From a virus (lineage: Duplodnaviria > Heunggongvirae > Uroviricota > Caudoviricetes), in IMG/VR virus record IMGVR_UViG_3300000976_000008, positions 1 through 47,222 of that record: a DNA stretch of 47,222 bases, one strand, 5' to 3'. The translations under genes were made by a program, and so were the position numbers. Below the pieces are notes generated by a model. That model saw only the letters and a program-made list of their open reading frames with translations. It did not search any database and was not told the origin of the DNA. Within the stretch, counting starts at the first letter, position 1. The number at the start of each line of letters is the position of its first letter. Below, one piece after another: positions 1,787 to 42,898 of the stretch.

Positions 1787-1820
1787 AAAGCCCGGTCGAA
1801 AATTTCGACCGGGCTTTTCT
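1787..1820. terminator. Bidirectional Rho-independent terminator downstream of the capsid gene
   Basis: AAAGCCCGGTCGAA (1787-1800) / AAT loop / TTCGACCGGGCTTT (1804-1817); A/T runs on both flanks; between convergent genes. Confidence 0.9.
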
Positions 1821-1855: not shown

Positions 1856-3460
1856 TTACAGGTTGCTTACGTTAACAACACCGTAGTAAAGACCACCATC
1901 TTCAATCAGCTTCTTGCCGTATCGAGTCATCACGCCCTTGTTAGGTGTGAAGCTGTTCGGGTCAAGAACTGTTGGCGTACTCAACAGTGGAATGTACGGA
2001 GCGTAGAAGTAACCAGCATCGAGAACTGAGTTGCCCTTGAAGCCCATCAGAATCTTGCAATTCGGGAAGAGTGGATCTTTGTAGATCTTCATCTTGCCCT
2101 GAATCGTACCGATGTTCATGATTCCGATATCAACGCCTTCAGTCGTGAATGCGTCACTAGCACGGAAATCATTGAGCTGCTCGAACTTCGAGCAGATGTC
2201 AGACGACATCACCATCCAGTTAGCAGGACCACGCAGTGTAGTTCTGTGGATGATGTTCGCGACTTCAAGAACCTTGTACATCAGGGCGATGTTGCGGTCA
2301 GTGAAGTTAACAGAGGCACCAGCCGCTGTTGCGAAGTTGTGATCGGCACGGATAGCAGAAGCAATGATCAGGTCGTTGATGATTTCACGGTCGATTTCGG
2401 CGACCATTTCATCAGCCATCAGATCTGTCAACGTCGATTCAGCATCGATGTTGTGAACAGCCTTAAGGTCCTGAGCAGCTTCAAGACTCCAGCTAGTCTT
2501 CAGCTTACGAGTAATAGCAGCAACAGAATCACTGTCGATGCTCATCGTAACTTCTGGCTGGAATGGGTTAGATTCCAAGTCGTACTCGTAGTTCACACGA
2601 GCAACGGCACCAGCAGGGAAAGCACCACCATCGAGGGTAACCTGAACGGCACCTGAAGAGTGGCTAAACTCAGTAGCACCAGCAGTCGCTGTGTCAACTG
2701 AAAGAGTGTTCGTGAAGTTAGTACAATCACCAACCAGAACAACTTCAGGAGCACCATCAGCATCGAAACTGACGCGAAGGCAAGGAACAGCGTCGTCACA
2801 GTTTGGACTTGCGTCTTCTTCTGTTTCGTAAACTTCAACAACAACAGTACCGGCGAGAACTGGACGGTGTGCCAGTGTCGCAGCAACTACTGTGTTGCCA
2901 GTCACAGTCGCATCTTCGCCGCGAACTTCCTGTGAACTGTAGTACGGGTCGAGTGCCCAACCATTCTGACGTGCGAATGTTTGAGACGTGTTCTGCCGCA
3001 TGATCTGAGTACCAGCAACAGTCTGACCCTTAGTCAGAGCGTATCGGTATCGGATGTAGAAGATGAGGCTGGCAGGTTGACTCATTGGCTGAACACCAAC
3101 AAGGTTGTCAGCAATCAACTTCGGATATGACTTTCGGATCAGCGGCAATGCGAATCGCGTGAAGTCGGCGATATTCGCAGTAGTCGTTTGATCTTCGAGG
3201 ATGACTGATCGGTTCTCAGGATTCCAGCAGTTGTACTGGTTCTCAAGAATCGCAGCCATCAAGCCGAATTTCTGAGGCGAGACTTCGCGGCACTTCTTGA
3301 GGACTGGCGACCATCTCTTGACGAGCTGATTCTTCTTGCTCTCATGAATCACTGACGCTTGGTGCATGTCAGATGCACCTTCAGTGATTGGCCGACGTCC
3401 TGCCGCACCCTCTACGAGGTGCTGGCGACCGCCAAATCGTTGTTGTCTAGTAGGAAGCAT
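1856..3460 (-). CDS. gp23: Major capsid protein, T4 gp23-like
   Basis: LVGVQPMSQPASLIFYIRYRY, TRKLKTSWSLEAAQDLKAVH..DAE, EIDREII, GYFYAPYIPL, GVMTRYG motifs; SD CCAGGAG upstream. Confidence 0.97.
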   Translation of the reverse strand: MLPTRQQRFGGRQHLVEGAAGRRPITEGASDMHQASVIHESKKNQLVKRWSPVLKKCREVSPQKFGLMAAILENQYNCWNPENRSVILEDQTTTANIADFTRFALPLIRKSYPKLIADNLVGVQPMSQPASLIFYIRYRYALTKGQTVAGTQIMRQNTSQTFARQNGWALDPYYSSQEVRGEDATVTGNTVVAATLAHRPVLAGTVVVEVYETEEDASPNCDDAVPCLRVSFDADGAPEVVLVGDCTNFTNTLSVDTATAGATEFSHSSGAVQVTLDGGAFPAGAVARVNYEYDLESNPFQPEVTMSIDSDSVAAITRKLKTSWSLEAAQDLKAVHNIDAESTLTDLMADEMVAEIDREIINDLIIASAIRADHNFATAAGASVNFTDRNIALMYKVLEVANIIHRTTLRGPANWMVMSSDICSKFEQLNDFRASDAFTTEGVDIGIMNIGTIQGKMKIYKDPLFPNCKILMGFKGNSVLDAGYFYAPYIPLLSTPTVLDPNSFTPNKGVMTRYGKKLIEDGGLYYGVVNVSNL

Positions 3461-16219: not shown

Positions 16220-16432
16220 CTAAGGCATGACTTCTAACAAATACGATGGCATTCCTTCCGGACCTCGACCACCAATATTTACATCAACCCAATACCCCGG
16301 ATGGTTGACAGTCCGTGAATCTGTCAAGGAAACAACAACGGCTTGTCTTGTATCATCATCTTGGTGAACTAGAACATTCTGACGTTCTTTGATCGCCACA
16401 CCATTCCGATCAACAATCCTAAAACTGGTCAT
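16220..16432 (-). CDS. Small hypothetical protein, possibly SH3/YopX-like beta fold
   Basis: ATG at 16432 overlaps the end of the upstream gene; DRNGVAIKE resembles the DKNGKEIYE motif. Confidence 0.5.
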
Positions 16433-17306
16433 ACAATTCGTCTCTATGAGCTGGTTCTGAAAGCCTTTCTCCAACGAATCCAAGCTTACGCTCGTTCATA
16501 AGATCAAGTTGTTGCTGAGATACAAAGTTCGGACCTGGAGTCTCAACATAAGTATCGAAAGCAACCGACTCAACATGCCCATCAAGAAAACCGACATTTG
16601 CAGAGCCAGTGTGTCTAAAATGCACAGTTGGGTAATTGCGGCTAGGAGGATCTAGGAGCCAATTCTCTTCAAAACTGAAAGCCGGTGGAGAGAACGACGT
16701 CAACTTTACCTGTGCACTATCAGCAAACACAATCGTCCGAGATGTAGATCTAAATTCAGCGAAAGAACGAGAAACCAAATTTTCAGACAATACAGCCCTG
16801 TAACTTGGAGGAGGGTATTCAACACCCGACGCACGTGAAAGATAATAGCCATTATACCCAAAGCCGCTCGCTGGTTTACCAAATCTGACATTATCCAACA
16901 GCGAAGTCGTAAGATTAGGACACTGGTAACTTGTTCTATTCGACTCCATGAAAGGAGCCAGAGGACCAGCACTGAAATCTAATTGTTCTTTGGGATCAGA
17001 TTTATCGTAGTCAATTTTGCCGAACCAAAAGTTTGATGTCCCTTGAGGCCCGGAAAAAGATTGCAGATAGCTCAATCTTTCCTTATCTTCGACTACATAT
17101 GGCACCATCAATTCACCATGTATGTCAGCGTAGTTATGTAGAGCAATTAGAAGTTGTTTCACCCTGTTCTTACACTGCGTCCTCCGTGCCGCTTCTCTCG
17201 CTGCTTGAACTGCTGGAAGTAGTAAAGCTAAAAGTATCGAAATGATCCCGATCACAACCAGAAGTTCAATTATAGTAAAAGCCCGCTTCGATCTACGTAT
17301 ATTCAT
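16419..17306 (-). CDS. DUF1559 family prepilin-type N-terminal cleavage/methylation protein with H-X9-DG C-terminal motif
   Basis: RRSKRA|[48 protein letters not shown] and [17 protein letters not shown]. Confidence 0.95.
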
Positions 17307-17367
17307 ATCAACCTGAACAAGGAATTGCCACAAGAATTTGTGGAAAGGAAGTTACCGCTGCCGCACC

Positions 17368-28665: not shown

Positions 28666-31600
28666 TTATCGACCCCACTGGTTCATCTCAGATTCCAAAC
28701 CTTGCTGCTTATCAGCCAGAACTGGAAGATATTGTTGAAGTAACTCGGCAATTGAAGCCATTTCTGATTCACCAGAGCCTGAGATACCCTCAACCTTACT
28801 ATTCAAATCATGTAATTCTTTAGCAATAGTAGCTAATAGAACCGTGTCCGCAGTTTCTTCTATCTCCGCACCAGTATCATTTGCAACTTGAATCTGAGTG
28901 ATAGCTTCAGATTTGATAACTTCATCAATTCCAGCATCTGAAGCAGCCGCCATAGCTGGGACAGCTTTAGTCTCAACAGCAGTTTGAATTCTTTGAGATG
29001 CCGCTTCCAATCGGAATGAGTATTTGTCTAAGGTGTTTGAAACACTTTCCATTTCAGCAGAAAGACTCTGACCAACACCATCAAATTTTAAGATCGCGTC
29101 ACCAAGATTATTCAGAATTTGAGCTAATTCATTAGCTGGTCCTGCTAGTTTCTCAGTCGCACTCTTCATCGATTCAGCAACAGCAGGTAATCTCTTGGCG
29201 AATTTCTCCATCTGCGGGATTGCCAAAATACCTGTTTCTGCCGCTTCTTTCATCGAATTGAACGGGGCATCTTTCATCACTTGGAATGCGTGAGCAATTT
29301 TGCTAACTGCATTACCAATTTTCTCGATCGTTGGGATCGACTTTCTAAACTTATCAAGAGAAGTTTCAAGCCACCACATGCCAGTGTAAATCGCCATCGA
29401 AGCTGGCACTAACCAAATACCAGCTTTGGTCAACATCAATGCAGCTTCTATCAACAAGAATGAAGCCCACGTCACACTTGCTGATCCAGACGCAAGCAAT
29501 GGTCCAGCGGCCATCAAAGCCCCACCAGAATAGTACAACCTATTCGCCGACTCTATGATAAATCTCGTCGAAGATATCATACTAACAGAAGCAAGAGTTA
29601 ACAACAGCACAGCAGAATTGAGAATTACTCCAGCCGATAACAATAACGAAGAACCAAAGATAAGAGCAAATGCCATTTGAATTATTGCGGGAGAGAGTGC
29701 AAAAGCACCGATCACAGCAAACAGTAGAGCACCAACACCGATCGCAAGTCTTACCGCTCCAGCCAAGATCAAAGTACCAGCAGAGATGAAGTTCTGGCCC
29801 ACCGCAACAAAGAGTAAACCAGCCGTGTTCAACATATTTGCAGAAGCGGATATTACTTCAGCACCACCCCACAAAATATTGGATGCAGAAACCAAGATTA
29901 TAGCACCAATCAATAATCCAGTAGAACCAGCAGTTAACCAAACACCAGCTAAAGCAAGAGTCACACTAGCATTGTAAAGTGCATTAATTGAATTAGTGTC
30001 TAACTTTTGGATAGCTTCACTAAGACGCTCCAACGCATCATCTAAAGCACCGCCAGCTTGACCAATCAAATTAGCGGCACGCATTATCGCCTGAGTACCA
30101 GCTAATAACGCAGCACCACCTTCGCCAACCTTCACACCATTATTATAAATAGTGTTCGCAGCACTACTCAAGAAGAACGCACCAACAGCAAACATTGCTG
30201 CACCAGCGACTAATGCAGGACCAGCTACAAGCATCAAGCCAGCAGCTACCGTAATCATCGGAACACCAGCCATCAACATCGACGCACTTGAAAGAATCAT
30301 TTGGCTTGATTCTAACAATGATGATGCAGCAGGTGCTAACATATTAGCTGCGGCTTGCATCGATGTCGCACCACCCAGTAGAAGAGTTCCACCAAGAGTT
30401 AACATACCACCAACAGCAATTGACAATGGTGCAGCAATAGCTAACGCATACATCCCAGCGAGCATCGCAAATGAAGCCGGAACAAAAGCAATTGCAGCAG
30501 CTAATAAGATACCAGAGGCAACCAACATCAACGAAGAACCTATAACCATGCCCCTACCGACATCGATTATAGTTCCAGAATCGAAACTCCCAATAGCTTC
30601 AACAATAGAAGCAAAAGCTGGAGCCAATGCCCATGCAGCCAATGCTACTACGAATAATGCTGCACCAAGGATCAATAAACCAGGAGCACCAATCAACGCA
30701 GCGGCTGAAACAAGCAATAAGCCAGCAGCTACCATAGGTAAGGCTACCCACATAGCCGGAGAGTGTGGACCAATAGCGTCGTGAATCAATTCAAAAGCTT
30801 CAGCGGCCATCTTAAGACCAGCACCCATCAACCAAGCTGCGGCACCAATCATCAAGACAGCGGCACCAATAGCCAATAAAGCAGGTATCACAGGCATCGC
30901 AAGATAGGCTAATCCTACCAGCACCAAGCCCAGAAGTCCAACAGCGGCAACCATCATTAAGATGCCACCAGCCATTTGACCCCAACCAAATTGGAGTAAC
31001 TCTCCGACACCTTTAGCGAAGAAGTAGGCTCCAACACCAGCCATCATTAAAGCCGCACCAAGAGCCAACAATGGAAGCATTACTGGTTGAACAGATTTTC
31101 CAAGAGCACCTAATCCTTGGCCGATAGATGTAAGTAGTTGTGCTATTACAGTTCCAACTGATTGTGCAACAGAAGAGATTATCCCACCAATACTAGCTGC
31201 CATTGATCCCATGGCACTAAACATCGAGGTCAATGCGGCACCAGCACCAGCTAAGCCAGCAAAAGCTGAACCAACAGCTACGATTGAAATAATTATCGCA
31301 CCTAGGAGTCCTAAGAACTCTTCACCAAGCTGTATTATGTCACCAATAATCCAAAGGTTTCGCAACCAATCATAGAATGAAGTAATCCAACCGATTACTG
31401 TGGCGATTGCTCCGGCTAATCTAGCCATCCATTTCAGCATTGGGACTAGAACAATGCCGATCAAAGAAGCAAAGTTCTTGAATATAAGACCTACATTCTC
31501 ATATAAATCTTCTAGAACTCTATTGAACCTTTGAGTAGCTGTAAAACTATCTTCTAAATTCTTTTGGGCTTGCTTCATTATGTCATTGAATGGAACATTT

Positions 31601-32982
31601 CCGCCACCCATTTGGTCACGGAGTTTATCCATCTCAATAGAAAGCATCATGGCTTCAGTAGAAGCGAAGCCCATCGATTTAGAAACAGCCTGAAGTTCTT
31701 TTTGTTTCTCAGCAGAATCCATGCCTGAATTCTGAATTCTATTAAATTCCTTAGAAGCTGCATCACCAGCCTCTACCATAGCACGTTGCATATCTTCAAC
31801 AGAATTGATGGCATCCATACCAGCAGCATCAGCTAATTTATAACTTGCAACCATATCTGTGGCCAACAAGTTCATCTGTGCTCTTGCAACTTCAGCATTA
31901 TAACCAACAGATTCGGCAAATCCACCCATCTGTACTTGGAGTTCGGTGAATTTTTCAACACCAGTATCGCCAAACATAGCCTTCAAATCGGCTACAGATA
32001 CAGTAGAATCACCTAATATATTATTCATCGCCGCAGCTGATAATCCAAATTTCCGCATAGATTCTTGGATTTTATTAAAAGCCAGTTCAGCAGAACCAGC
32101 GTCACCACCTGCTGCTCTCAATCTGCGGGAGTATTCAGCCAATGTATCAATACTGACTCCAGTAACGCGATTCAGCATTACTATCTGTTTAGCATACTTC
32201 CCTATTTCTTCGCGGGGAGTACGCACATCAGCAAGTGCTTTATATGCCGCTACCGATTCAGATTCCAGAATTCCTTGATCAGCAGCCAATTGTCTCGTTT
32301 GTTGAGCTAAGCCTTCCATAGAGCCATATGCCCTATAATTATTCTCAACAAATTGTTCTTGAATTTCGGTGGCTGCAGCAATTGTGTTAGCAATTCTTTC
32401 AAAAGCACGACCTAAGAATCTAACTACAGATAATGATGCCCCAACGGCTTTCGCAACATCATCAAAGGCACTTCCCAGATCCCGGACACTGCCTACTTCA
32501 TCTTCGACAAGACCTAATTCCTCCCTATGAAGGATATTCTTAGTCCTAATCGCATCGCTAATATCTTCGATGCCACTCAGTATATCAGAGGCACCTTCTT
32601 TTTCATTTAGTATATCATCGAGACCTTTTTCTCGAAGATCAGCATGTTCTTCGAGAATTTTCAAAGCTTCTCTCAACGTTCCTAATTGATCTTCAGAAAC
32701 GTCATTCATTTCTCCAAATGATGAAGCAATCGCTTGAGATGTACTATTTATATCACTAGAAATAGAATTTACTGTAACTGCGGAAGCTGCTGCAGCGTTC
32801 AAAGAACTGTCAAGACCCGCTGCAACATCAGTAATACTCCCTAGAGCAGATTGTGCCGCTCCAGATACCTGTTGCTCAACGTCCGTCGCTGATTGCCCAA
32901 ATTGATCCAAAGTGGAAAAGGCTTCTCGCGAATCCAATGCCATCTGAATTGAAAGGGCGTATACGTTTGGGTCAATAGCCAT
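28666..32982 (-). CDS. Tape measure protein (1438 aa)
   Basis: Long Ala/Gly/Leu-rich helical protein with an extended hydrophobic repeat region; immediately upstream of tube initiator and baseplate genes. Confidence 0.88.
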   Translation of the reverse strand: MAIDPNVYALSIQMALDSREAFSTLDQFGQSATDVEQQVSGAAQSALGSITDVAAGLDSSLNAAAASAVTVNSISSDINSTSQAIASSFGEMNDVSEDQLGTLREALKILEEHADLREKGLDDILNEKEGASDILSGIEDISDAIRTKNILHREELGLVEDEVGSVRDLGSAFDDVAKAVGASLSVVRFLGRAFERIANTIAAATEIQEQFVENNYRAYGSMEGLAQQTRQLAADQGILESESVAAYKALADVRTPREEIGKYAKQIVMLNRVTGVSIDTLAEYSRRLRAAGGDAGSAELAFNKIQESMRKFGLSAAAMNNILGDSTVSVADLKAMFGDTGVEKFTELQVQMGGFAESVGYNAEVARAQMNLLATDMVASYKLADAAGMDAINSVEDMQRAMVEAGDAASKEFNRIQNSGMDSAEKQKELQAVSKSMGFASTEAMMLSIEMDKLRDQMGGGNVPFNDIMKQAQKNLEDSFTATQRFNRVLEDLYENVGLIFKNFASLIGIVLVPMLKWMARLAGAIATVIGWITSFYDWLRNLWIIGDIIQLGEEFLGLLGAIIISIVAVGSAFAGLAGAGAALTSMFSAMGSMAASIGGIISSVAQSVGTVIAQLLTSIGQGLGALGKSVQPVMLPLLALGAALMMAGVGAYFFAKGVGELLQFGWGQMAGGILMMVAAVGLLGLVLVGLAYLAMPVIPALLAIGAAVLMIGAAAWLMGAGLKMAAEAFELIHDAIGPHSPAMWVALPMVAAGLLLVSAAALIGAPGLLILGAALFVVALAAWALAPAFASIVEAIGSFDSGTIIDVGRGMVIGSSLMLVASGILLAAAIAFVPASFAMLAGMYALAIAAPLSIAVGGMLTLGGTLLLGGATSMQAAANMLAPAASSLLESSQMILSSASMLMAGVPMITVAAGLMLVAGPALVAGAAMFAVGAFFLSSAANTIYNNGVKVGEGGAALLAGTQAIMRAANLIGQAGGALDDALERLSEAIQKLDTNSINALYNASVTLALAGVWLTAGSTGLLIGAIILVSASNILWGGAEVISASANMLNTAGLLFVAVGQNFISAGTLILAGAVRLAIGVGALLFAVIGAFALSPAIIQMAFALIFGSSLLLSAGVILNSAVLLLTLASVSMISSTRFIIESANRLYYSGGALMAAGPLLASGSASVTWASFLLIEAALMLTKAGIWLVPASMAIYTGMWWLETSLDKFRKSIPTIEKIGNAVSKIAHAFQVMKDAPFNSMKEAAETGILAIPQMEKFAKRLPAVAESMKSATEKLAGPANELAQILNNLGDAILKFDGVGQSLSAEMESVSNTLDKYSFRLEAASQRIQTAVETKAVPAMAAASDAGIDEVIKSEAITQIQVANDTGAEIEETADTVLLATIAKELHDLNSKVEGISGSGESEMASIAELLQQYLPVLADKQQGLESEMNQWGR

Positions 32983-36817: not shown

Positions 36818-36876
36818 CTTGTTCTTTCTGTTTGTTTGGATATAGAACGACCCCCATTATCGGGGGTCGGTCCATA

Positions 36877-37203
36877 TCAGCCTTCAATAGCTGGTGGGTG
36901 TATCGCAGAGGGAATCTCTGGTGCGACACCGCCAATTTGAACCAAACCCTTTTCCCCAAGCTTCATTCCAGGAACGAAGGTGACGGACTCATCCATCGCT
37001 TCAATGGGGACCTTGCTAATCATCTGTTGCAAGGGCATAGGGTCGGTTAAACTCTGACCAGGATTGGCGGCTACTTCAACATCGGCGAAGACCGTAGTCG
37101 ACACCAACACCAAGCAGCCCATATCGCCCATGTTCTTAGCGAACATTTGGCGGACGACTCTACCATCCCGATCAGTACCAACAATCTTGAAACCGGTCTG
37201 CAC
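36877..37203 (-). CDS. Hypothetical protein coupled to pspA
   Basis: GTG start overlaps the pspA TAG stop (TAGTG at 37201-37205). Confidence 0.65.
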   Translation of the reverse strand: MQTGFKIVGTDRDGRVVRQMFAKNMGDMGCLVLVSTTVFADVEVAANPGQSLTDPMPLQQMISKVPIEAMDESVTFVPGMKLGEKGLVQIGGVAPEIPSAIHPPAIEG

Positions 37204-37883
37204 TAGACCGCACCCTTGTCAGAAGAAGCAGAAGCAGCAGCCATCAGACGTGCAACCTCATCATCGACAGATGCGTCTCCGCTTCCGTACTTCTCTTCGA
37301 GATTCTCAGTATCGTCGGAGCGAAGTTCTTCCCAAGCTTCGGCATCACTCTCAGCGTCTCTCGCAGCTTCTTCGAGATTACCGAGTCGAGCCAGAGGGCC
37401 ACCATCCATACCACTTGCCGACTTGGCGAGATTGGTACGAAGTTGACCACCTGAAATCCGTGCAGCCAGAGTTGCCTGGTTGCTCTTCGCTTTGGCGATC
37501 TTGTTTCTCGCCTGACCAAGTTGCTTCCGGAGACTAGCAACGACATCGTCATTCTTCTGGATCTCGCTAGCGTAGGTCTTCGATTGTGCATCTGCGGCTT
37601 GCTTCTTAGCCACAGCAGAACTCACGTCGGCCTCATTCCCAGCCGCCGCCGCCTTTTGTGCGAGATTACTCCACTTGTCGGCTTCCTTCTCGGAATCCTC
37701 AAGTTGCTTCTTGCGAGTATAGTTCTCTTTCATCAGACGCTGAATGTCAGATTCAAAACCGTTGATCTGCTTCTCAGAGTCGATGATGTCGTACTTTGCA
37801 TCTCGCACAGGATCTCCAATTGCCTCAGCAGCTTCATCCGTCTTTTCACGGAAAAAATTGCCCAATGCTCTAAACAAACTCAT
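37203..37883 (-). CDS. pspA: PspA/IM30 (Vipp1, YjfJ) family protein
   Basis: Amphipathic N-helix MSLFRALGNFFR, DP...L...I.D.EK, long coiled coil, A.KA...GNE, C-terminal L..LE....E..AEA..EL and SVDDEVARL; 226 aa. Confidence 0.9.
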   Translation of the reverse strand: MSLFRALGNFFREKTDEAAEAIGDPVRDAKYDIIDSEKQINGFESDIQRLMKENYTRKKQLEDSEKEADKWSNLAQKAAAAGNEADVSSAVAKKQAADAQSKTYASEIQKNDDVVASLRKQLGQARNKIAKAKSNQATLAARISGGQLRTNLAKSASGMDGGPLARLGNLEEAARDAESDAEAWEELRSDDTENLEEKYGSGDASVDDEVARLMAAASASSDKGAV

Positions 37884-37943
37884 GTTGTGTACCTTTGAAG
37901 GTTTTGTTGATTAACTCGTAGCGTCATCGATCAGCAGATCAAC

Positions 37944-38387
37944 TTAAGCTGCGACAGGTGCCTCGCATCCGACTGCAATGACTTCACGTGAACCCTCAAT
38001 CGCCGTGAGAAGCGATTGCATCGCAGCCACGAGTTCTGATTGTTCGAAATCACCCAGAGGAACAGAATCGACAAGAGTGACGACGTACTCCGAAGGACTT
38101 GTGATAGTCCTGTCATCTTTCTCGGTGATCAGCGAAATCGCATAAGGCGAAATCCGGCTGTTCGCGTCCAACGCGGCGAATGCGAATTCGAGCATTCGTT
38201 CTTCGTTGAGTTCTCCCAAAGTTGCCAATTGACACGTGATCTGGAGGTTTTCTCCATCACTCGTCAGAACAACCGGAATTCCTCCATCAAGTCGAACCAG
38301 AACACAAGTATCATCTTGCTTGGCAACGTAGCCAGCTTGTTCAAGTCCAGTGCAAATCTGCGTCAAATTGTCCATCGTCATTCCCAT
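37944..38387 (-). CDS. YjfI (DUF2170) / YbjN-type chaperone-fold protein
   Basis: About 145 aa with the pattern IPVVLT..GE.LQI...L, ALD.N..I.P...I.L, .VPLGD....EL......L; adjacent to pspA as yjfI is to yjfJ. Confidence 0.7.
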   Translation of the reverse strand: MGMTMDNLTQICTGLEQAGYVAKQDDTCVLVRLDGGIPVVLTSDGENLQITCQLATLGELNEERMLEFAFAALDANSRISPYAISLITEKDDRTITSPSEYVVTLVDSVPLGDFEQSELVAAMQSLLTAIEGSREVIAVGCEAPVAA

Positions 38388-38394
38388 TTCGATT

Positions 38395-39075
38395 TCACTT
38401 CTTCACAAGAGTAATGTCGGTTAGGTTGATATTGCTGCCCTGATAGAATGAAACTACCCCACCGACCGATAGAGTTTCACCATATTCGTCAAGCCCGCCA
38501 ACTTCGAGAATCAACAATTCTGGGTCTTCAACCTCAGACATTGTGTGCAATTCTACAACCGTCGCAGGTTGGGGCATTGAAAGACCAGATGGCTTCGGAT
38601 ATTCCCGATATTCGCCGTGCAATTCTCCACATTTCGTGTCGTATTCCACTGGACCATTATCAGAATCCTGTTCCACAAATTCGGTAAACTCCAAGTCGCA
38701 AGGCTTGAAATCGAACTTGTTTTCTGGTTCCTTAAATAACCAACGCATGTCAGCATTCAGCAGATCACCACGAGACATCGGAACTTCGAAGTCATCTGGT
38801 GCCCAATAAATTCTAACATCCTGTTCTTCCCCAACAATCTTCACCAACAAATGCAATTGTGGTGAAGATTCTGGTTGCCCTTTTAAATCTGCAATAATCC
38901 ATTCGCAGATGTTAGTCTGTTCACGTATCTTTCGAATACGCTCAACTTCTAACTGCAACCCCTCCGTGGCACCCGCGACTCCAGCCTCCATCAAATCCTT
39001 GATGGTCTGCTCATCTGAGAGACAAACAAAATCCCCCACAGCCACTTCTGCCACACGTTCTTTAGTCTCAGCCAT
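38395..39075 (-). CDS. DUF4178 / YjfK (DUF2491)-like protein
   Basis: Acidic beta-rich 226 aa starting VAVGDFV.L; ends G..I.L.DI.L; in the pspA/DUF350 context. SD GAGG before ATG 39075. Confidence 0.6.
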   Translation of the reverse strand: MAETKERVAEVAVGDFVCLSDEQTIKDLMEAGVAGATEGLQLEVERIRKIREQTNICEWIIADLKGQPESSPQLHLLVKIVGEEQDVRIYWAPDDFEVPMSRGDLLNADMRWLFKEPENKFDFKPCDLEFTEFVEQDSDNGPVEYDTKCGELHGEYREYPKPSGLSMPQPATVVELHTMSEVEDPELLILEVGGLDEYGETLSVGGVVSFYQGSNINLTDITLVKK

Positions 39076-39083
39076 CGTTACCT

Positions 39084-39797
39084 CTAGTTGAAAAGGATAG
39101 CACCAATAACAATGCAAACGATCAGAGCAAGTCCGAGGATCACGAGAAAACTAAGAGCACCAGACCCACTATCGACATAGGTCACAGAACCAGGCCGGTC
39201 GTAATAATAATTATTCCTGCTCATGAGAGTATTCATCATTACCATATCAGACATTGCGTCGTACATCATCCAAGACCCACTCGGACCCATGTAACCGTAC
39301 CCACCGTACTGTTGATTATATGACACATTGTAGGTATTCCCGCCAACTTTCGTAGATTGCGGGATGTGCGAAGGACGAGTAGCAGGCTTCGAAGTGTACT
39401 TGGATTTGTACTTGCCAGCATTCTTCGCCTTGAACGACGCAGTCGCATCAGCTTTGGACTTGTAGGCAGTACCAGAAGCCTTTGCTTTGTTGTAGGCTTT
39501 CGTGTCGGCAGCACTTCGTTTCGCCGTCCTAGATGAAGAAGAACCTGACCGAGAAGTAGCACTGCTACTTCGCTTACTACCCCAGGTAGATGATGTCGAT
39601 TTCTTCGAACCACCCCAACTGGACGTCCTAGAGCTACTGCTTCGACGACTGCTGCTTCGACCCCAACCGCTGCTTCGGCTACTGCTTCGACTGAAACTGC
39701 TTCGACCTCTGCCGCGTGCGAATGCGTCACCGACGCCCATCGCACCAATAAAGATGGCAAAAACCAAAACGAACTTAAAGAATTTCATGAATCTCAT
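39084..39797 (-). CDS. Exported Ser/Arg-rich membrane protein, YjfM (DUF1190)-like
   Basis: Signal peptide ending AFA, RSSS-repeat region, WMMY.AM..M.MMN.LM motif, C-terminal TM helix; SD AAGGA. Confidence 0.6.
   Translation of the reverse strand: MRFMKFFKFVLVFAIFIGAMGVGDAFARGRGRSSFSRSSSRSSGWGRSSSRRSSSSRTSSWGGSKKSTSSTWGSKRSSSATSRSGSSSSRTAKRSAADTKAYNKAKASGTAYKSKADATASFKAKNAGKYKSKYTSKPATRPSHIPQSTKVGGNTYNVSYNQQYGGYGYMGPSGSWMMYDAMSDMVMMNTLMSRNNYYYDRPGSVTYVDSGSGALSFLVILGLALIVCIVIGAILFN
39626..39707 (-). repeat. Short CTGCTTCG repeats (5 copies, + strand) encoding Arg-Ser-Ser units
   Basis: ctgcttcg recurs within 39637-39707 inside the SR-rich gene. Confidence 0.75.
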
Positions 39798-39844
39798 GTG
39801 TGTTTCCTTCCGGAGTTTGAGTTGCTTATAACGGTAGCAACTAA

Positions 39845-40720
39845 TTAGATGGCCACGGCGACCGAGAAAGCCCAAGAGAGGGCAACGAAAGTGGCAGCGG
39901 CGACAGCACCAGCCGCAGGATTCTTATCAATAGCAATTTCCTTCGAAAGCTTCTCCGAAGGCAAGAAGAGTTTATCAGCAATGACTCGCATCGAAACGAG
40001 CAACAACATACCGACAGCAGCGATTGAGACCGTAGGAATCAGTTCGGCGACAATGTTGCTACCAGCACCAACCAGAGCCGTCTTCATGATGATTCCACAA
40101 CCGACCAAGAAACCGCCGAAAGAGAGACCAGCAGCTAAATTGTCGTCGTTTTCAATCACGTCATGAACGTCGTAAGAAGTGATCTTCTGGAAGACGAAGC
40201 CTCCAAGAACCAGCATCACTTGTCCGATAGCCCAATAAACCAAAAGATCGACGATACCGTGGCCCCACGAGAGTGAATCACCCGTCAAAGCACCGGCGAT
40301 AATCAACCCTGTCGCAATAGAGCTACCCGCCACCACGAAAGCAGTTCCGCAATTCCGATCAGTTGTGATCTCTTTCTGAATGCTGAACTTGTACAAAATC
40401 GATTTGTCGTTCACCCAAACACTCAGTCTCAGTAAGACGACTGAGAGAAGACCGTAAACCCCAAGTGAAAGGAAAGATTCCCCAACCGAATCGCCACCGA
40501 CACCGTAAGTTGTTCCGCCGAGTGCGATAACGAGTCCGATCATGTAACCAGCAAATGCGATCCCGAAAGCAGGATTGTCCCGCTCAGTGAGTTCGTCATC
40601 GAACGAGAAGCTTGTAGTCTTGTCGAAAACAATTCGACTCAGAAGAATGAATCCGACGATCACCGAGAAAAACGGCACCGCGTAGAAAATCTTCTGCAAA
40701 GTAATCCAAAAATCGCCCAT
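39845..40720 (-). CDS. DUF350 (YjfL / UPF0719) inner-membrane protein, tandem-domain form
   Basis: Multiple TM helices with repeated EL/EI....DN.A.G....G motifs (DELTERDNPAFG, KEITTDRNCGTA, DVIENDDNLAAG, KEIAIDKNPAAG); AGGA before ATG 40720. Confidence 0.88.
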   Translation of the reverse strand: MGDFWITLQKIFYAVPFFSVIVGFILLSRIVFDKTTSFSFDDELTERDNPAFGIAFAGYMIGLVIALGGTTYGVGGDSVGESFLSLGVYGLLSVVLLRLSVWVNDKSILYKFSIQKEITTDRNCGTAFVVAGSSIATGLIIAGALTGDSLSWGHGIVDLLVYWAIGQVMLVLGGFVFQKITSYDVHDVIENDDNLAAGLSFGGFLVGCGIIMKTALVGAGSNIVAELIPTVSIAAVGMLLLVSMRVIADKLFLPSEKLSKEIAIDKNPAAGAVAAATFVALSWAFSVAVAI

Positions 40721-40848
40721 GTCGAGAGTCCTGTTCATCCTATTAGAGTTGGTTTGTGGAATAGTTGTTCGCCCCATGTTGCGAGCAAACGATCCCCGTA
40801 AACCTTAGAGATAGGCGAGTAGGGGAATTGTACCCCTAAAATACACCG

Positions 40849-41979
40849 TCATTTCTTCTTTTGTAATCTCTTCCTCAAGGCAACCAATTGGGAAGGATTC
40901 AACTTCTTGATATTGTCATCATGGACCTTCCTGATCTCAGACAATGACATTTCTAACTTGACGAATAATTCATTCCAATCTTTGATGGTTCTTTCCTCAC
41001 CATCCTCTATATACTTCAATTTTGGAGGGAGTGAAAAGAAAATGTCAAATCCCTCTCTTGAAAACAATGCGTAATTGTCAAGAACGCTTTTAATCCCAGC
41101 CTTATCATTATCAGGAGAAAGTATGATCCCATCTTTCGGACCAAGAATCTTGATTTTACCAATTTGATTAGCAGTAAGAACCGCTCCCCCAGATGCAAGA
41201 GCTTGAGAACCAAGAGTATTCTGATCGAAAATTGCTTCAGTAATGATAACGTATGAAGCGGGTTCGATATCATCAAAGCCGTAAAGAAAATCACCCTTCG
41301 ATCCCTCAGTCATCCCAACAACTTCTCCAGATTTATTACGCACTTCAATATCTGGGAAATTGAATCTCTTATTCAAACGAGATCTACTCTGCCAATAAAC
41401 TAGTGTGTCGAATTCATAATAAGGCCAAAAAACATCCATTCCAAAATGGAATAATTCTGAGCTTTCGATAGATTCAGCAGTATATCCCCTGGTCTTCAGC
41501 CACTTGATCAAGATACTAGCTTGACGATCTTCCGATTCAGCCAAAATCTCCGCACCCTTCGGAAGAGCCACCGCTACCTTTCTCTTGGCCTTCTGATCAG
41601 TGATGCGGCCCTCTGGTCTCAGATAAGAAGAGAGATCCGTAGAGACTCCGAGAACCTCAGAAAGGGCTTCTTTATAAGAGCACTTTTTATAAAGACGAAC
41701 AAGCTTTATGAAGGAACAATTCCTCTTGCCGGTGTCTGGATTTATCGGCCCAGCCCACTCATTACCACGCCAATCGTGGCAACCGCCTTTCTCAGGATTT
41801 ATATTGAAATTGAAACCAGTATCATTATCGAAAGGATTATTGATGCAATACTCGGCACCACCTTTACGATTCTTGAATTCGAAATTAGCTTCAATCCAAG
41901 CTTCAATCTTAGCTTCTGGAAGTTTCTTATATCCGCCGCCAAGTTTGGTTCGATAATCTCTCGCGTTATATTCTGCCAT
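40849..41979 (-). CDS. DNA primase (TOPRIM, gp61/DnaG-like)
   Basis: VIITEAIFD, IILSPDNDKAG (DxD), IKDWNE, WLKTRG; SD GAGGAG before ATG 41979. Confidence 0.88.
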   Translation of the reverse strand: MAEYNARDYRTKLGGGYKKLPEAKIEAWIEANFEFKNRKGGAEYCINNPFDNDTGFNFNINPEKGGCHDWRGNEWAGPINPDTGKRNCSFIKLVRLYKKCSYKEALSEVLGVSTDLSSYLRPEGRITDQKAKRKVAVALPKGAEILAESEDRQASILIKWLKTRGYTAESIESSELFHFGMDVFWPYYEFDTLVYWQSRSRLNKRFNFPDIEVRNKSGEVVGMTEGSKGDFLYGFDDIEPASYVIITEAIFDQNTLGSQALASGGAVLTANQIGKIKILGPKDGIILSPDNDKAGIKSVLDNYALFSREGFDIFFSLPPKLKYIEDGEERTIKDWNELFVKLEMSLSEIRKVHDDNIKKLNPSQLVALRKRLQKKK

Positions 41980-41998
41980 ACTCCTCAAATACAAGAGG

Positions 41999-42898
41999 TT
42001 ATGAGATTGTGAAAATGAACTTTCTACTAACTCTAGTCTGCCCATTAGGCAAGTGTAGAGTAATCTGATACTGGTAAGTTCCTCGCAAGAAATTACTAGT
42101 ATCCAATAAGTATTTCACAACCCATGGATTAGACCGAAATGAACCATGGCGAATAGCAATTTCACATGGTTCATCAGTCGCAAGCACTTCACCATTCTGA
42201 GTCTCAATAGTAATAGTAGGACGCAAGAATGGGATAATCGGATTCACAAGATTGAAATTATAATCATATAATGGAAGAGGCATCAAACCAACTTCCAAAG
42301 GACGAATTTCAGGAGAATTGAAACTCTGATCCAAAGGTTCAAAACCAAACCGAATCGTCTGAAGATCATCATCGCAATACCACTCATCTGGGTAAACCCA
42401 GAAACGATGGCAACACTTCAGCATCTTATGTTCAAACTCAGGATTATCTAGATCGCAATCCTCAAATGCAGTACCCTCTTCACAAGGGTTTTCTGCAAAA
42501 TAGCACCACACATCAAAATAGACGCCAGGAACCGAGAAATCGTCTGGGATGGCGAATGGGAGATGATACCTACCAGGAATAGGTTCACCCTCACCTGGTG
42601 CAGGTGGTTCTGTTCCACATACTCCTATTTCAGTATCTGAACCCTCTTCCTCCTGGCACAGTGGTGCAGGGTATAATGGGACATCATTATTAGTCCCAAC
42701 AAATTCGGATGGGTCCGTAATTGGGATAGTTGAGACTAAGTTATGTGGTACAACTTGATCCTTAAATATTTCAACTTTCCTAATGGCGAAAGGATCAGTT
42801 CCTACACCATTTCTCAAGAAGTCAACATTCAGGTCCACTACCTGCCCTCTTCGAGCAGAAATTCGTGGAAATGCACCATCCAATTGTGAACATATCAT
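41999..42898 (-). CDS. Cys-rich beta-sheet protein of unknown function, possibly a virion component
   Basis: Follows the tail-chaperone locus; Ig-like beta pattern; about 9 Cys; CAAAGATAAG element upstream. Confidence 0.6.
   Translation of the reverse strand: MICSQLDGAFPRISARRGQVVDLNVDFLRNGVGTDPFAIRKVEIFKDQVVPHNLVSTIPITDPSEFVGTNNDVPLYPAPLCQEEEGSDTEIGVCGTEPPAPGEGEPIPGRYHLPFAIPDDFSVPGVYFDVWCYFAENPCEEGTAFEDCDLDNPEFEHKMLKCCHRFWVYPDEWYCDDDLQTIRFGFEPLDQSFNSPEIRPLEVGLMPLPLYDYNFNLVNPIIPFLRPTITIETQNGEVLATDEPCEIAIRHGSFRSNPWVVKYLLDTSNFLRGTYQYQITLHLPNGQTRVSRKFIFTIS

Follow-up and report, generated by a model that had tools for sequence, protein, structure and literature searches.

The window, that is, the whole stretch of 47,222 nucleotides analysed here, belongs to the 408,349-bp virus record of an uncultured phage (CheckV completeness 100%), and PHROG matches to portal, major head, baseplate, tape-measure and primase proteins mark it as phage DNA. 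Between the replication genes (primase) and the tail genes, five intact open reading frames (ORFs) lie in a row on the minus strand (37203-40777), in the following order: (i) a double DUF350 gene; (ii) gene X; (iii) gene Y; (iv) a gene for a CesT-like protein; and (v) pspA (Table 1). The spacers within this five-gene block measure 47, 8, 7 and 60 nt. The initial annotation had correctly seen five consecutive genes but ended them at 40720, an internal Met (and a possible later start) of the DUF350 frame, which opens at 40777. Among the other genes of the phage is one for a DUF1559 pilin-like protein.

Table 1. Features of the PspA cassette and of the region downstream of it, from the channel gene to the DUF350 gene.
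Feature	Position	Strand	Basis or remark
6-TM voltage-gated K+ channel (Kv/KvAP type), 272 aa	34386..35204	-	Pfam Ion_trans
Three ORFs: 282 aa (N- and C-terminal TM spans), 164 aa, 102 aa	35188..36817	-	Between g108 and channel
GC-rich stem-loop directly 3' of g108	36848..36869	-	9 pairs, 7 GC; terminator-like
g108, phage-only ORF	36877..37203	-	Start overlaps pspA stop by 1 nt
PspA/IM30 (bacterial ESCRT-III) homologue, 226 aa	37203..37883	-	Pfam PF04012
CesT/Tir/YbjN-fold (YjfI-like) small acidic protein, 147 aa	37944..38387	-	Atlas structure matches
Protein Y, soluble, beta-rich, large family outside Pfam, 226 aa	38395..39075	-	AF2, Atlas
Protein X: signal peptide, low-complexity stretch, periplasmic domain, C-terminal TM anchor, 237 aa	39084..39797	-	Spans, alignment, AF2
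8-TM inner-membrane protein, two tandem DUF350 (YjfL-type) domains, 310 aa	39845..40777	-	Pfam PF03994

The outer two genes of the block are assigned by profile. The DUF350 protein, with about eight hydrophobic spans, matches PF03994 over two stretches (E 1.9e-53), and a six-frame search places both matches within one open frame; its C-terminal repeat is 35% identical to E. coli YjfL. PspA matches PF04012 (PspA_IM30) with an E-value of 4.1e-14 and 53.2 bits against a cut-off of 33.9, from position 2 to 217 of the 220 of the profile, together with PHROG 26980 and, weakly, TIGR02977. None of the three middle genes matches DUF2170, DUF4178, DUF2491 or DUF1190 in Pfam, NCBIfam or PHROGs, so that, of the families initially proposed, the profiles bear out DUF350 and PspA_IM30 (as well as Ion_trans for the channel) but not these four.

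Protein X has hydrophobic spans at residues 1-28 and 208-237, a signal peptide ending in …AFA/RG, a low-complexity stretch rich in Ser, Arg, Gly and Trp, and a conserved periplasmic domain of ~100 aa. The AF2 model is disordered at residues 26-85 and exceeds pLDDT 90 at residues ~95-200, and the RP…P…Y…GYGY…D positions are invariant in the family alignment (A8). No match was obtained in Pfam, PHROG or NCBIfam, nor in a fold search, and X is a member of a further unnamed family. The likeness to YjfM suggested by its SR-rich segment is one of composition only; kinship to YjfM/DUF1190 is not detectable and the families are unrelated.

Protein Y (AF2 pLDDT 89) has no match in Pfam or in the PDB, and its family comprises 487 cluster representatives at E<=1e-3. 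Atlas TM-scores of 0.60-0.63 to DUF4178 and DUF2491 clusters support a moderate likeness of the predicted fold to these (YjfK) families; at the sequence level, one of 56 sampled representatives weakly matches DUF4178, and hhalign gives a probability of 0.1 for DUF2491. The CesT-like protein (likely start Met5, 38375) likewise has nothing in Pfam, and its Atlas TM-scores to DUF2170 (0.79/0.85), CesT (0.75/0.75) and YbjN (0.77-0.79) clusters support a predicted CesT/YbjN/DUF2170-like fold. An ALDAN.R..P motif is conserved in nine homologues, and pspA lies immediately downstream of this gene in every copy examined.

Downstream of pspA lies g108, an ORF for which no family, Atlas lead or other feature was detected. 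In phages L006 and L003/L004, homologues with ~50% identity sit at the corresponding position, and the bacterial operons have none. The stem-loop after g108 folds at -27.3 kcal/mol (z -5.5), is not a dispersed repeat within the window and has a similar counterpart at the same place in L006 (-30.7 kcal/mol, z -4.1); it is probably a terminator, an attenuator or an RNA-stabilising element. The three ORFs that follow are unique to this phage, since neither the bacterial operons nor the sister phages (L006, L003, L014) have them, and no significant family match (Pfam, PHROGs) was obtained. The channel itself (Ion_trans 2.3e-22, Ion_trans_2 5.6e-13) has a TVGYGD filter, an S4 segment RTLRILRALK and no cytoplasmic ligand domain; its closest solved relatives are Kv4.2, Kv1.3 and KvAP. 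In this phage, hence, pspA and Kv are not adjacent but separated by four ORFs and a strong hairpin. The linkage to Kv claimed by the initial annotation is real, but a single operon running on to it is doubtful here, and co-regulation of pspA and the channel is uncertain because of the conserved hairpin and the three inserted genes.

The bacterial counterpart of the cassette is a six-gene operon with DUF350x2, X, Y, CesT-like, PspA and Kv in the same order, each protein being 50-65% identical. It is found on 1.5-1.8-Mb Pirellulaceae contigs (MAGs CAVOND010000005.1 and CAVYFC010000008.1), on a Rubripirellula sp. contig and on two more contigs whose neighbouring genes are planctomycete-like. The DUF350 protein is 60% identical to its Pirellulaceae homologue, PspA 61-65% to the Pirellulaceae-type PspA of three loci (L005, L012, L008), and the channel 63-64% to the one that closes the operon. 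The phage version adds g108 and the hairpin after pspA, and three more ORFs before the channel. This operon, also without a polyamine gene, displaces the idea that the cassette is the E. coli yjfIJKLM set reordered: HMMs recover only the equivalents of YjfL (DUF350) and YjfJ (PspA), those of YjfI and YjfK are alike at fold level only, and BLAST or profile similarity of the cassette proteins to YjfI, YjfJ, YjfK and YjfM is not significant. The absence of a polyamine synthase from the set had been rightly noted (neither Spermine_synth nor GSP_synth occurs anywhere in the phage), and, since the operon of donor type has none, this absence is inherited and not a phage-specific loss.

Phage copies cluster with Pirellulaceae copies in gene trees (CesT 95/95, PspA 94/93). 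These trees, on which the direction of transfer rests, are unrooted and have 6-9 taxa each; some are discordant, in that the DUF350 of the window falls with Pirellulaceae and not with phage L006, and the Y of L006 likewise falls with Pirellulaceae. Taken together, protein identity, gene order and trees suggest that, most likely, a huge-phage ancestor captured a six-gene Pirellulaceae-type operon as one block.

The sister phages L006/L007 and L014 carry the same cassette on the same backbone (hub, g88, g299, primase, cassette, tape measure), and the PspA of L006 is 78% identical to that of the window. Furthermore, an X-Y-CesT-PspA block occurs on six further huge-phage contigs (92-548 kb); a GluR0-type K+ channel comes next after PspA in five of them, and the sixth stops inside pspA. 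In every readable bacterial or sister-phage copy, a K+ channel follows PspA directly or past g108 (L006), except in L015, where the gene downstream of PspA has no channel-like sequence. A survey of other phages for the cassette plus channel, as initially suggested, thus found Kv in two sister phages and the GluR0 type in five further contigs, and T[VI]GYGD is the filter in all channels compared. The K+ channel belongs to the core of the module, and the first proposal, that the phage carries an envelope module centred on PspA and linked to a Kv channel, is borne out.

The related phage L003/L004 has lost everything from DUF350 through most of pspA, leaving a 3' stump of pspA without start codon and an intact channel, and DUF350 is absent from several other phage versions. 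Such decay would be expected if the cassette were a neutral passenger, picked up from a host not long ago and of no use to the infection. This is very unlikely, however, given that the six ORFs are unbroken across phages at 47-78% protein identity, which argues for purifying selection, that they are intact also in a second, distant phage clade, and that the phage-specific g108 and hairpin are conserved beside it. The losses also weigh against the reading preferred below: the deletion in L003/L004 indicates that the PspA part is dispensable and that the channel is able to serve alone.

Probably, then, the cassette is a host-derived accessory operon that would keep the membrane of the infected cell sealed and polarised, its function and its capture both being read from sequence. 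X and Y may form one transmembrane unit, because many bacteria encode them as one chain (of 30 long bacterial homologues, 27 have X fused to the N-terminal side of the Y domain, 26 of them at E <1e-6), and this unit, with the DUF350 protein, would report or respond to the state of the envelope. The CesT-like protein would handle PspA, either keeping it soluble or delivering it, and PspA would polymerise on the damaged inner membrane and limit ion leak, an established function of its family. On physiological reasoning, depolarisation would open a channel of the Kv type, and a periplasmic ligand one of the GluR0 type present in other phages; the K+ leaving the cell would then shift the membrane potential back in the direction of the K+ equilibrium potential. 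A membrane that stays sealed and polarised would sustain energy supply through a long infection cycle, and the module may protect the cell from premature holin firing set off by depolarisation and from abortive-infection effectors aimed at the membrane.

With the same parts and reasoning, and with the known capacity of PspA-family proteins to counter membrane leaks, the cassette might instead serve mainly as a counter-defence, in which PspA patches and the channel restores the potential after attack by abortive-infection effectors that permeabilise or depolarise the inner membrane (CBASS, retrons, RexAB-like TM effectors). The recurrence of the module across several unrelated huge-phage backbones, as for a selectable accessory trait, and its patchy gain and loss, resembling the turnover of anti-defence genes, fit this reading; it is nevertheless unlikely, as no link to a known defence system was seen and the chromosomal operon has as neighbours ECF sigma factors, Ser/Thr kinases and a cellulase and no defence islands, which points to a housekeeping stress role.

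The channel might also be the main effector, altering potential or K+ content for host take-over or superinfection exclusion while PspA and its partners limit side effects. Chlorovirus K+ channels depolarise their hosts, and for Kcv the blocking of competitor entry or host reprogramming has been proposed; in the phages, one of two types of K+ channel is present in every version readable past pspA, and it survives where the PspA block is deleted. Yet this is quite unlikely: channel and PspA block were inherited jointly from a bacterial operon, where exclusion makes no sense, there is no sign of virion packaging, and a K+-rich cell is polarised, rather than depolarised, by a Kv channel whose K+ filter is intact, since such a channel drives its potential towards E_K.

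PspA/Vipp1 proteins can tubulate and fuse membranes, and planctomycetes have extensive membrane invaginations, which PspA polymers, DUF350 and X-Y might sculpt into a niche for replication or assembly. The place of the cassette between primase and tail genes would agree with this, but such remodelling is hardly credible for a near-unchanged host stress operon that is dispensable in close relatives, and no phage-specific membrane-targeting partner was identified, g108 being featureless. Upkeep of a sealed, polarised membrane remains the preferred reading.

CesT/Tir-PspA dyads have been found alongside 8-TM DUF350, DUF4178 and an exported protein, with K+ channels in related operons (PMC11237479). 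With the 'second group' of such operons (Ravi, Aravind and colleagues, mSystems 2024, e.g. Shewanella AAN56744-AAN56747; PMC11237479) the phage cassette shares the double DUF350 (8-TM), an exported protein, a beta-rich cytoplasmic protein and CesT/Tir directly upstream of pspA. It differs from that group in that: (i) neither the cassette nor the rest of the phage has the defining 7-TM-fused spermidine-synthase-like gene; (ii) a K+ channel is added; (iii) scores do not assign the beta-rich protein to DUF4178; and (iv) X, set apart by its features and not by comparison with the 'Ctha_1186' domain, lacks a lipobox cysteine and has a C-terminal TM anchor. The 'third group', E. coli yjfIJKLMC, combines CesT/Tir-PspA, ATP-grasp YjfC, 4-TM DUF350, DUF1190, DUF2491 and sometimes a K+ channel (PMC11237479). 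Common to this group and the phage cassette are a CesT-fold gene before a PspA paralogue, DUF350 and, in some bacteria, the K+ channel, but in the phage the gene order differs, DUF350 is doubled, YjfC/GSP synthetase is missing and the channel, of plain Kv type, has no intracellular ligand sensor.

Among viruses, chlorovirus Kcv is likewise a virus-encoded K+-selective pore with a canonical filter; it is, however, a minimal 2-TM pore of eukaryotic algal viruses, whereas the phage channel is a 6-TM Kv with an S4 sensor from a bacterial PspA operon. PspA recurs in huge phages, is transcribed in other lineages and has been reported with DUF350 neighbours (Yuan & Chen, bioRxiv 10.64898/2026.10.24.761521, October 2026). 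Here too, PspA is encoded by a phage larger than 200 kb with membrane proteins alongside, while the main examples of that report are gut phages with Ca2+-ATPase or SPFH neighbours. K+ and other ion channels go unmentioned in it, as do partners of CesT type, families X and Y, and an origin in planctomycetes. With phage PspA already known (bioRxiv 10.64898/2026.10.24.761521) and bacterial CesT-PspA-DUF350 operons described since 2024, the present cassette is a further variant.

The phage whose first 47 kb form the window, an IMG/VR virus record of 408,349 bp with a CheckV completeness of 100%, contains matches to portal, major head, baseplate, tape-measure, primase and ribonucleotide reductase proteins, which identify it as a T4-like huge myovirus. 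Nearly all genes of the window lie on the minus strand. The five consecutive genes named in the initial annotation are indeed present between the primase and tape-measure genes, and five further ORFs come after them (see the table below). In the GenBank phage collection, neither the region (by blastn) nor its PspA (by tblastn) found a match. Elsewhere in the window, there is a gene for a DUF1559 (SBP_bac_10) pilin-like protein with an N-terminal methylation motif.

Coordinates of the cassette, its flanks and other features of the window
Feature	Position (nt)	Strand	Length	Remark
Primase	40849-42045			flanks cassette
DUF350 protein	40777-39845	minus	310 aa	ORF call
X, Ser/Arg-rich	39797-39084	minus	237 aa	ORF call
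Y	39075-38395	minus	226 aa	ORF call
CesT-like protein	38387-37944	minus	147 aa	ORF call
PspA	37883-37203	minus	226 aa	ORF call
g108	37203-36877	minus		ORF call; overlaps pspA stop
Hairpin	36848-36869			GC-rich, directly after g108
g282	36817-35969	minus		ORF call
g164	35969-35475	minus		ORF call
g102	35496-35188	minus		ORF call
Kv channel	35204-34386	minus		ORF call
Tape-measure gene	28666-32982			other flank of cassette region
DUF1559 pilin-like protein	16419-17333
Major head gene	1856-3460	minus
Inverted repeat	1787-1817			perfect, 15 nt, 1-nt gap

PspA matches PF04012 over its full length (53.2 bits against a cut-off of 33.9, profile positions 2-217 of 220; 52.6 bits in a six-frame search), and its N-terminus, MSLFRALGNFFRE, is kept in nine homologues and looks amphipathic when judged by eye. 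The DUF350 protein contains two tandem PF03994 units within one ORF (97.5 and 94.5 bits; E = 1.9e-53) and about eight TM spans. This Pfam match, together with 35% identity to E. coli YjfL in BLASTP, bears out its designation as the YjfL equivalent. The Kv protein is a 6-TM voltage-gated K+ channel of the Kv/KvAP type: PF00520 (Ion_trans) matches at 79.8 bits, Ion_trans_2 matches as well, Kv4.2, Kv1.3 and KvAP are its best relatives among solved structures, and the protein has a TVGYGD filter and an S4 segment, RTLRILRALK, with spaced Arg/Lys.

The remaining three cassette members, i.e., the CesT-like protein, the beta-rich protein Y and the exported protein X, had been annotated as YjfI-, YjfK- and YjfM-like, respectively. 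None of them has a match in Pfam, NCBIfam or PHROGs, and, among the five E. coli K-12 Yjf proteins, BLASTP is significant for YjfL alone and not for YjfI (E = 2.3 with the CesT-like protein), YjfJ, YjfK or YjfM. Hence, of the four members other than PspA, only DUF350 is recovered by profile HMMs, and HMM failure for these members, which the initial annotation had named as refuting, applies to three of the four; fold evidence rescues the CesT-like protein and perhaps also Y. With the CesT-like protein, PF09938 (DUF2170/YjfI) gives no match at E ≤ 0.1, nor at E ≤ 10 in a six-frame search. Its model in the Atlas of predicted structures aligns with a DUF2170 cluster (TM 0.79/0.85), a CesT cluster (0.75/0.75) and YbjN clusters (0.77-0.79), with predicted models on both sides of each comparison, and the protein is accordingly modelled as a CesT/Tir-superfamily fold, the fold class to which YjfI belongs (PMC11237479). 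A complex prediction of PspA with the CesT-like protein scored 0.39 against 0.23 for the control, under the required margin, and counts neither for nor against a contact of the two.

Y has 14 close homologues, and searching 1.8 billion proteins with a profile yielded 487 cluster representatives. DUF4178 (PF13785) weakly matches one of 56 sampled family members and found nothing in a six-frame search, and hhalign of a 69-sequence Y profile against YjfK and a 26-sequence DUF2491 (PF10679) profile gave probabilities of 0.1-0.2. Its AF2 model (pLDDT 89) aligns over 166 residues with DUF4178 and DUF2491 clusters at TM 0.60-0.63, the next unrelated rows being at or below 0.38, and language-model features compare at 0.90-0.91 with the same two families; Foldseek of the model against PDB returned nothing at E ≤ 1e-3. 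We would treat Y as a family of its own, whose fold probably resembles that of DUF4178 and DUF2491.

X consists of (i) a cleavable signal peptide without lipobox cysteine; (ii) a Ser/Arg/Gly/Trp-rich stretch conserved in composition; (iii) a well-conserved, confidently modelled domain of ~100 aa; and (iv) a C-terminal TM helix. The DUF1190/YjfM profile (PF06693) does not match it, BLASTP aligns it with YjfM only along short Ser/Arg/Gly-rich stretches that reflect low-complexity composition, and wide Atlas and VIA-align searches with its model gave no convincing fold match (TM ≤ 0.33, Z < 3). The fold matches of X include no DUF1190 cluster, but X may nonetheless be kin to YjfM. Of 30 long members of the Y family, 27, among them P0020, P0023 and P0027, carry X at the N-terminal end of Y in one polypeptide (26 with E < 1e-6). 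This Rosetta-stone fusion, found in many bacteria, runs from a signal peptide through the SR-rich region, the conserved domain, the TM helix and a linker to the Y domain. From this fusion we infer that X and Y act as a single transmembrane unit, in which a TM helix joins the X domain in the periplasm to the Y domain in the cytoplasm. X and Y represent two sizeable protein families without a Pfam entry that occur in PspA operons.

The nearest non-phage homologue of Y lies on a 1.54-Mb contig of a Pirellulaceae metagenome-assembled genome (MAG), in an operon of DUF350 (291 aa), X (234), Y (228), CesT-like (146), PspA (219) and Ion_trans (273) genes. A genome search for related loci, with an alignment of five sequences, gave a second Pirellulaceae MAG copy on a 1.83-Mb contig and a third copy in Rubripirellula. 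The same six genes are present on two more contigs, where their neighbors are of planctomycete type (ECF sigma factors, WD40 Ser/Thr kinases, DUF1501). In all six families, the phage and Pirellulaceae proteins are 50-65% identical by BLASTP, and the genes are collinear, with extra phage ORFs between PspA and Kv. Unrooted gene trees of 6-9 taxa place the phage and Pirellulaceae copies together for CesT (95/95) and PspA (94/93). The cassette is a clear candidate case of the capture of an entire operon by a huge phage, likely from Pirellulaceae-type hosts, and Pirellulaceae would provide a host assignment for this uncultured 408-kb phage lineage. Two gene trees are discordant: in that of DUF350 the window copy groups with Pirellulaceae (95/96) and not with the sister phage L006, and in that of Y the L006 copy groups with Pirellulaceae (92/97) and not with the window copy. 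These trees, in which taxon sampling is thin, may reflect later gene-wise exchange between phage and host copies. On the Rubripirellula contig (L013:1679-2362), Y residues 1-160 and CesT-like residues 52-141 share one stop-free frame, which may stem from an internal deletion or a fusion, or else from faulty assembly.

The absence of the polyamine enzyme, also stated in the initial annotation, holds for the entire 408-kb phage, with neither PF01564 nor PF03738, and for the bacterial loci described above. The cassette thus falls outside the yjf/polyamine-linked PspA operons (groups 2 and 3 of PMC11237479), in which the enzyme is a 7TM-spermidine synthase or the ATP-grasp YjfC. A phage-specific loss was rejected as an explanation, since the donor-type bacterial operon lacks the enzyme too.

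Among related phages, the cassette appears in several states. The same-backbone phages (baseplate hub, g88, g299, primase, cassette and tape measure) include L006/L007, with the full cassette followed by g108 and Kv; L014, with truncated X, Y, CesT-like, PspA and Kv, without DUF350 and g108; and L003/L004, in which everything from DUF350 through most of pspA is deleted, leaving of pspA a stump that lacks a start codon (residues 159-215, 84% identity), followed by g108 and an intact Kv. The stump corresponds to the last ~57 codons (L003:7998-8195, L004:5689-5886; window 37203-37410) and lies between primase and g108. The three extra ORFs between g108 and Kv are specific to the window within this group; g282, found among the relatives examined only in the window's phage, has TM spans at both termini and an acidic middle. 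That the cassette is a neutral passenger is a rival reading. Six further huge-phage contigs (186, 548, 395, 351, 298 and 92 kb), a second set unrelated to the first, carry X-Y-CesT-PspA, and two of them also have DUF350. In one of them, L017, a LAGLIDADG homing endonuclease occupies the place expected for DUF350.

In five of these six contigs (L010/L016, L017, L019, L020 and L022), the gene next after PspA encodes a GluR0-type ligand-gated K+ channel (SBP_bac_3, Lig_chan and Ion_trans_2, with a T[VI]GYGD filter); the 395-kb contig, L018, breaks off inside pspA, so its next gene is not readable. Kv accompanies the cassette in sister phages; in the second set the GluR0-type channel takes its place. 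The succession of PspA and a K+ channel across bacteria and both phage sets indicates that the K+ channel is a conserved member of the module, whose type is interchangeable. Exclusion through ion flux is a rival reading of the cassette that bears on these channels.

From DUF350 to PspA, consecutive genes lie 47, 8, 7 and 60 nt apart, and g108 overlaps pspA by 1 nt. The hairpin after g108 (-27.3 kcal/mol, z -5.5) has a similar counterpart at the corresponding position of L006 (-30.7 kcal/mol, z -4.1), which has g108 as well. The g108 ORF is confined to phages; no family was detectable for it, and an Atlas look-up gave no lead. A role of the hairpin as a dispersed regulatory repeat was rejected, as the window holds no second copy. 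The inverted repeat 3' of the major head gene forms a comparable hairpin and is likely a terminator. Gene spacing and hairpin suggest that DUF350 to g108 would form one transcription unit, ended or attenuated at the hairpin, and that Kv would then be expressed via read-through or from its own promoter. Given the hairpin and the three ORFs before Kv, the claim that the same operon continues to Kv is doubtful for this phage. A search of sequencing runs for the phage listed no RNA run; the one sample listed is an algae metagenome, probably the source of the record.

It is established for these families that PspA/Vipp1 polymers attach to membrane under stress and curb its leakage, that Kv channels are opened by voltage and pass K+, and that CesT-type proteins bind partner proteins. 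Synteny and fusion suggest a division of labor for the rest: X-Y and DUF350 would together sense or anchor from within the membrane, PspA would be handled by the CesT-like protein, and, when the membrane is compromised, the channel would pass K+ out and so restore membrane potential. On the most economical reading, the operon by which the host rescues its own membrane would stay expressed from the phage throughout infection, which would sustain energy supply and avert abortive infection or premature lysis triggered by depolarization. A rival reading sees counter-defence as the cassette's sole purpose, and another sees membrane remodelling. A bolder and rather unlikely reading is a damage-gated "seal and repolarize" circuit of PspA and K+ channel, repeatedly captured by huge phages of planctomycetes and other hosts against depolarization-triggered holin firing and abortive infection in the course of long infections. 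In such a circuit, leakage would open the channel via depolarization (Kv) or via cytoplasmic amino acids in the periplasm (GluR0); K+ efflux would restore the potential, and PspA, freed by the CesT-like protein and placed by X-Y/DUF350, would patch the lesion. Overall, the initial annotation of an E. coli yjfIJKLM-type set with Kv is confirmed in part, and its interpretation as a membrane-maintenance kit is supported in part.

The conserved synteny ties a bacterial ESCRT-III-type repair protein to K+ channels in bacteria and two phage clades, with two channel types, and offers a testable hypothesis on a long-standing question, the purpose of prokaryotic Kv and GluR0 channels. A paper of 2024 described bacterial CesT/Tir-PspA operons that combine an 8-TM DUF350 with DUF4178 and an exported protein, as well as related operons that include a K+ channel (PMC11237479). 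A preprint of October 2026 reported PspA from 184 huge phages and from 667 phages of IMG/VR, with DUF350 as neighbor in 10 cases and a "2-TM transporter substrate-binding protein" in 10; it mentions neither K+ channels nor CesT partners nor planctomycetes (bioRxiv 10.64898/2026.10.24.761521). The "2-TM transporter substrate-binding protein" is probably the GluR0-type K+ channel found here. What is new here is (i) the complete module; (ii) its likely operon-level capture from Pirellulaceae-type hosts; (iii) the constant pairing with a K+ channel, which is of one type or the other; (iv) the X-Y fusion evidence; and (v) the sister-phage decay series. The cassette also sharpens the picture of huge-phage PspA given in the recent preprint (bioRxiv 10.64898/2026.10.24.761521).
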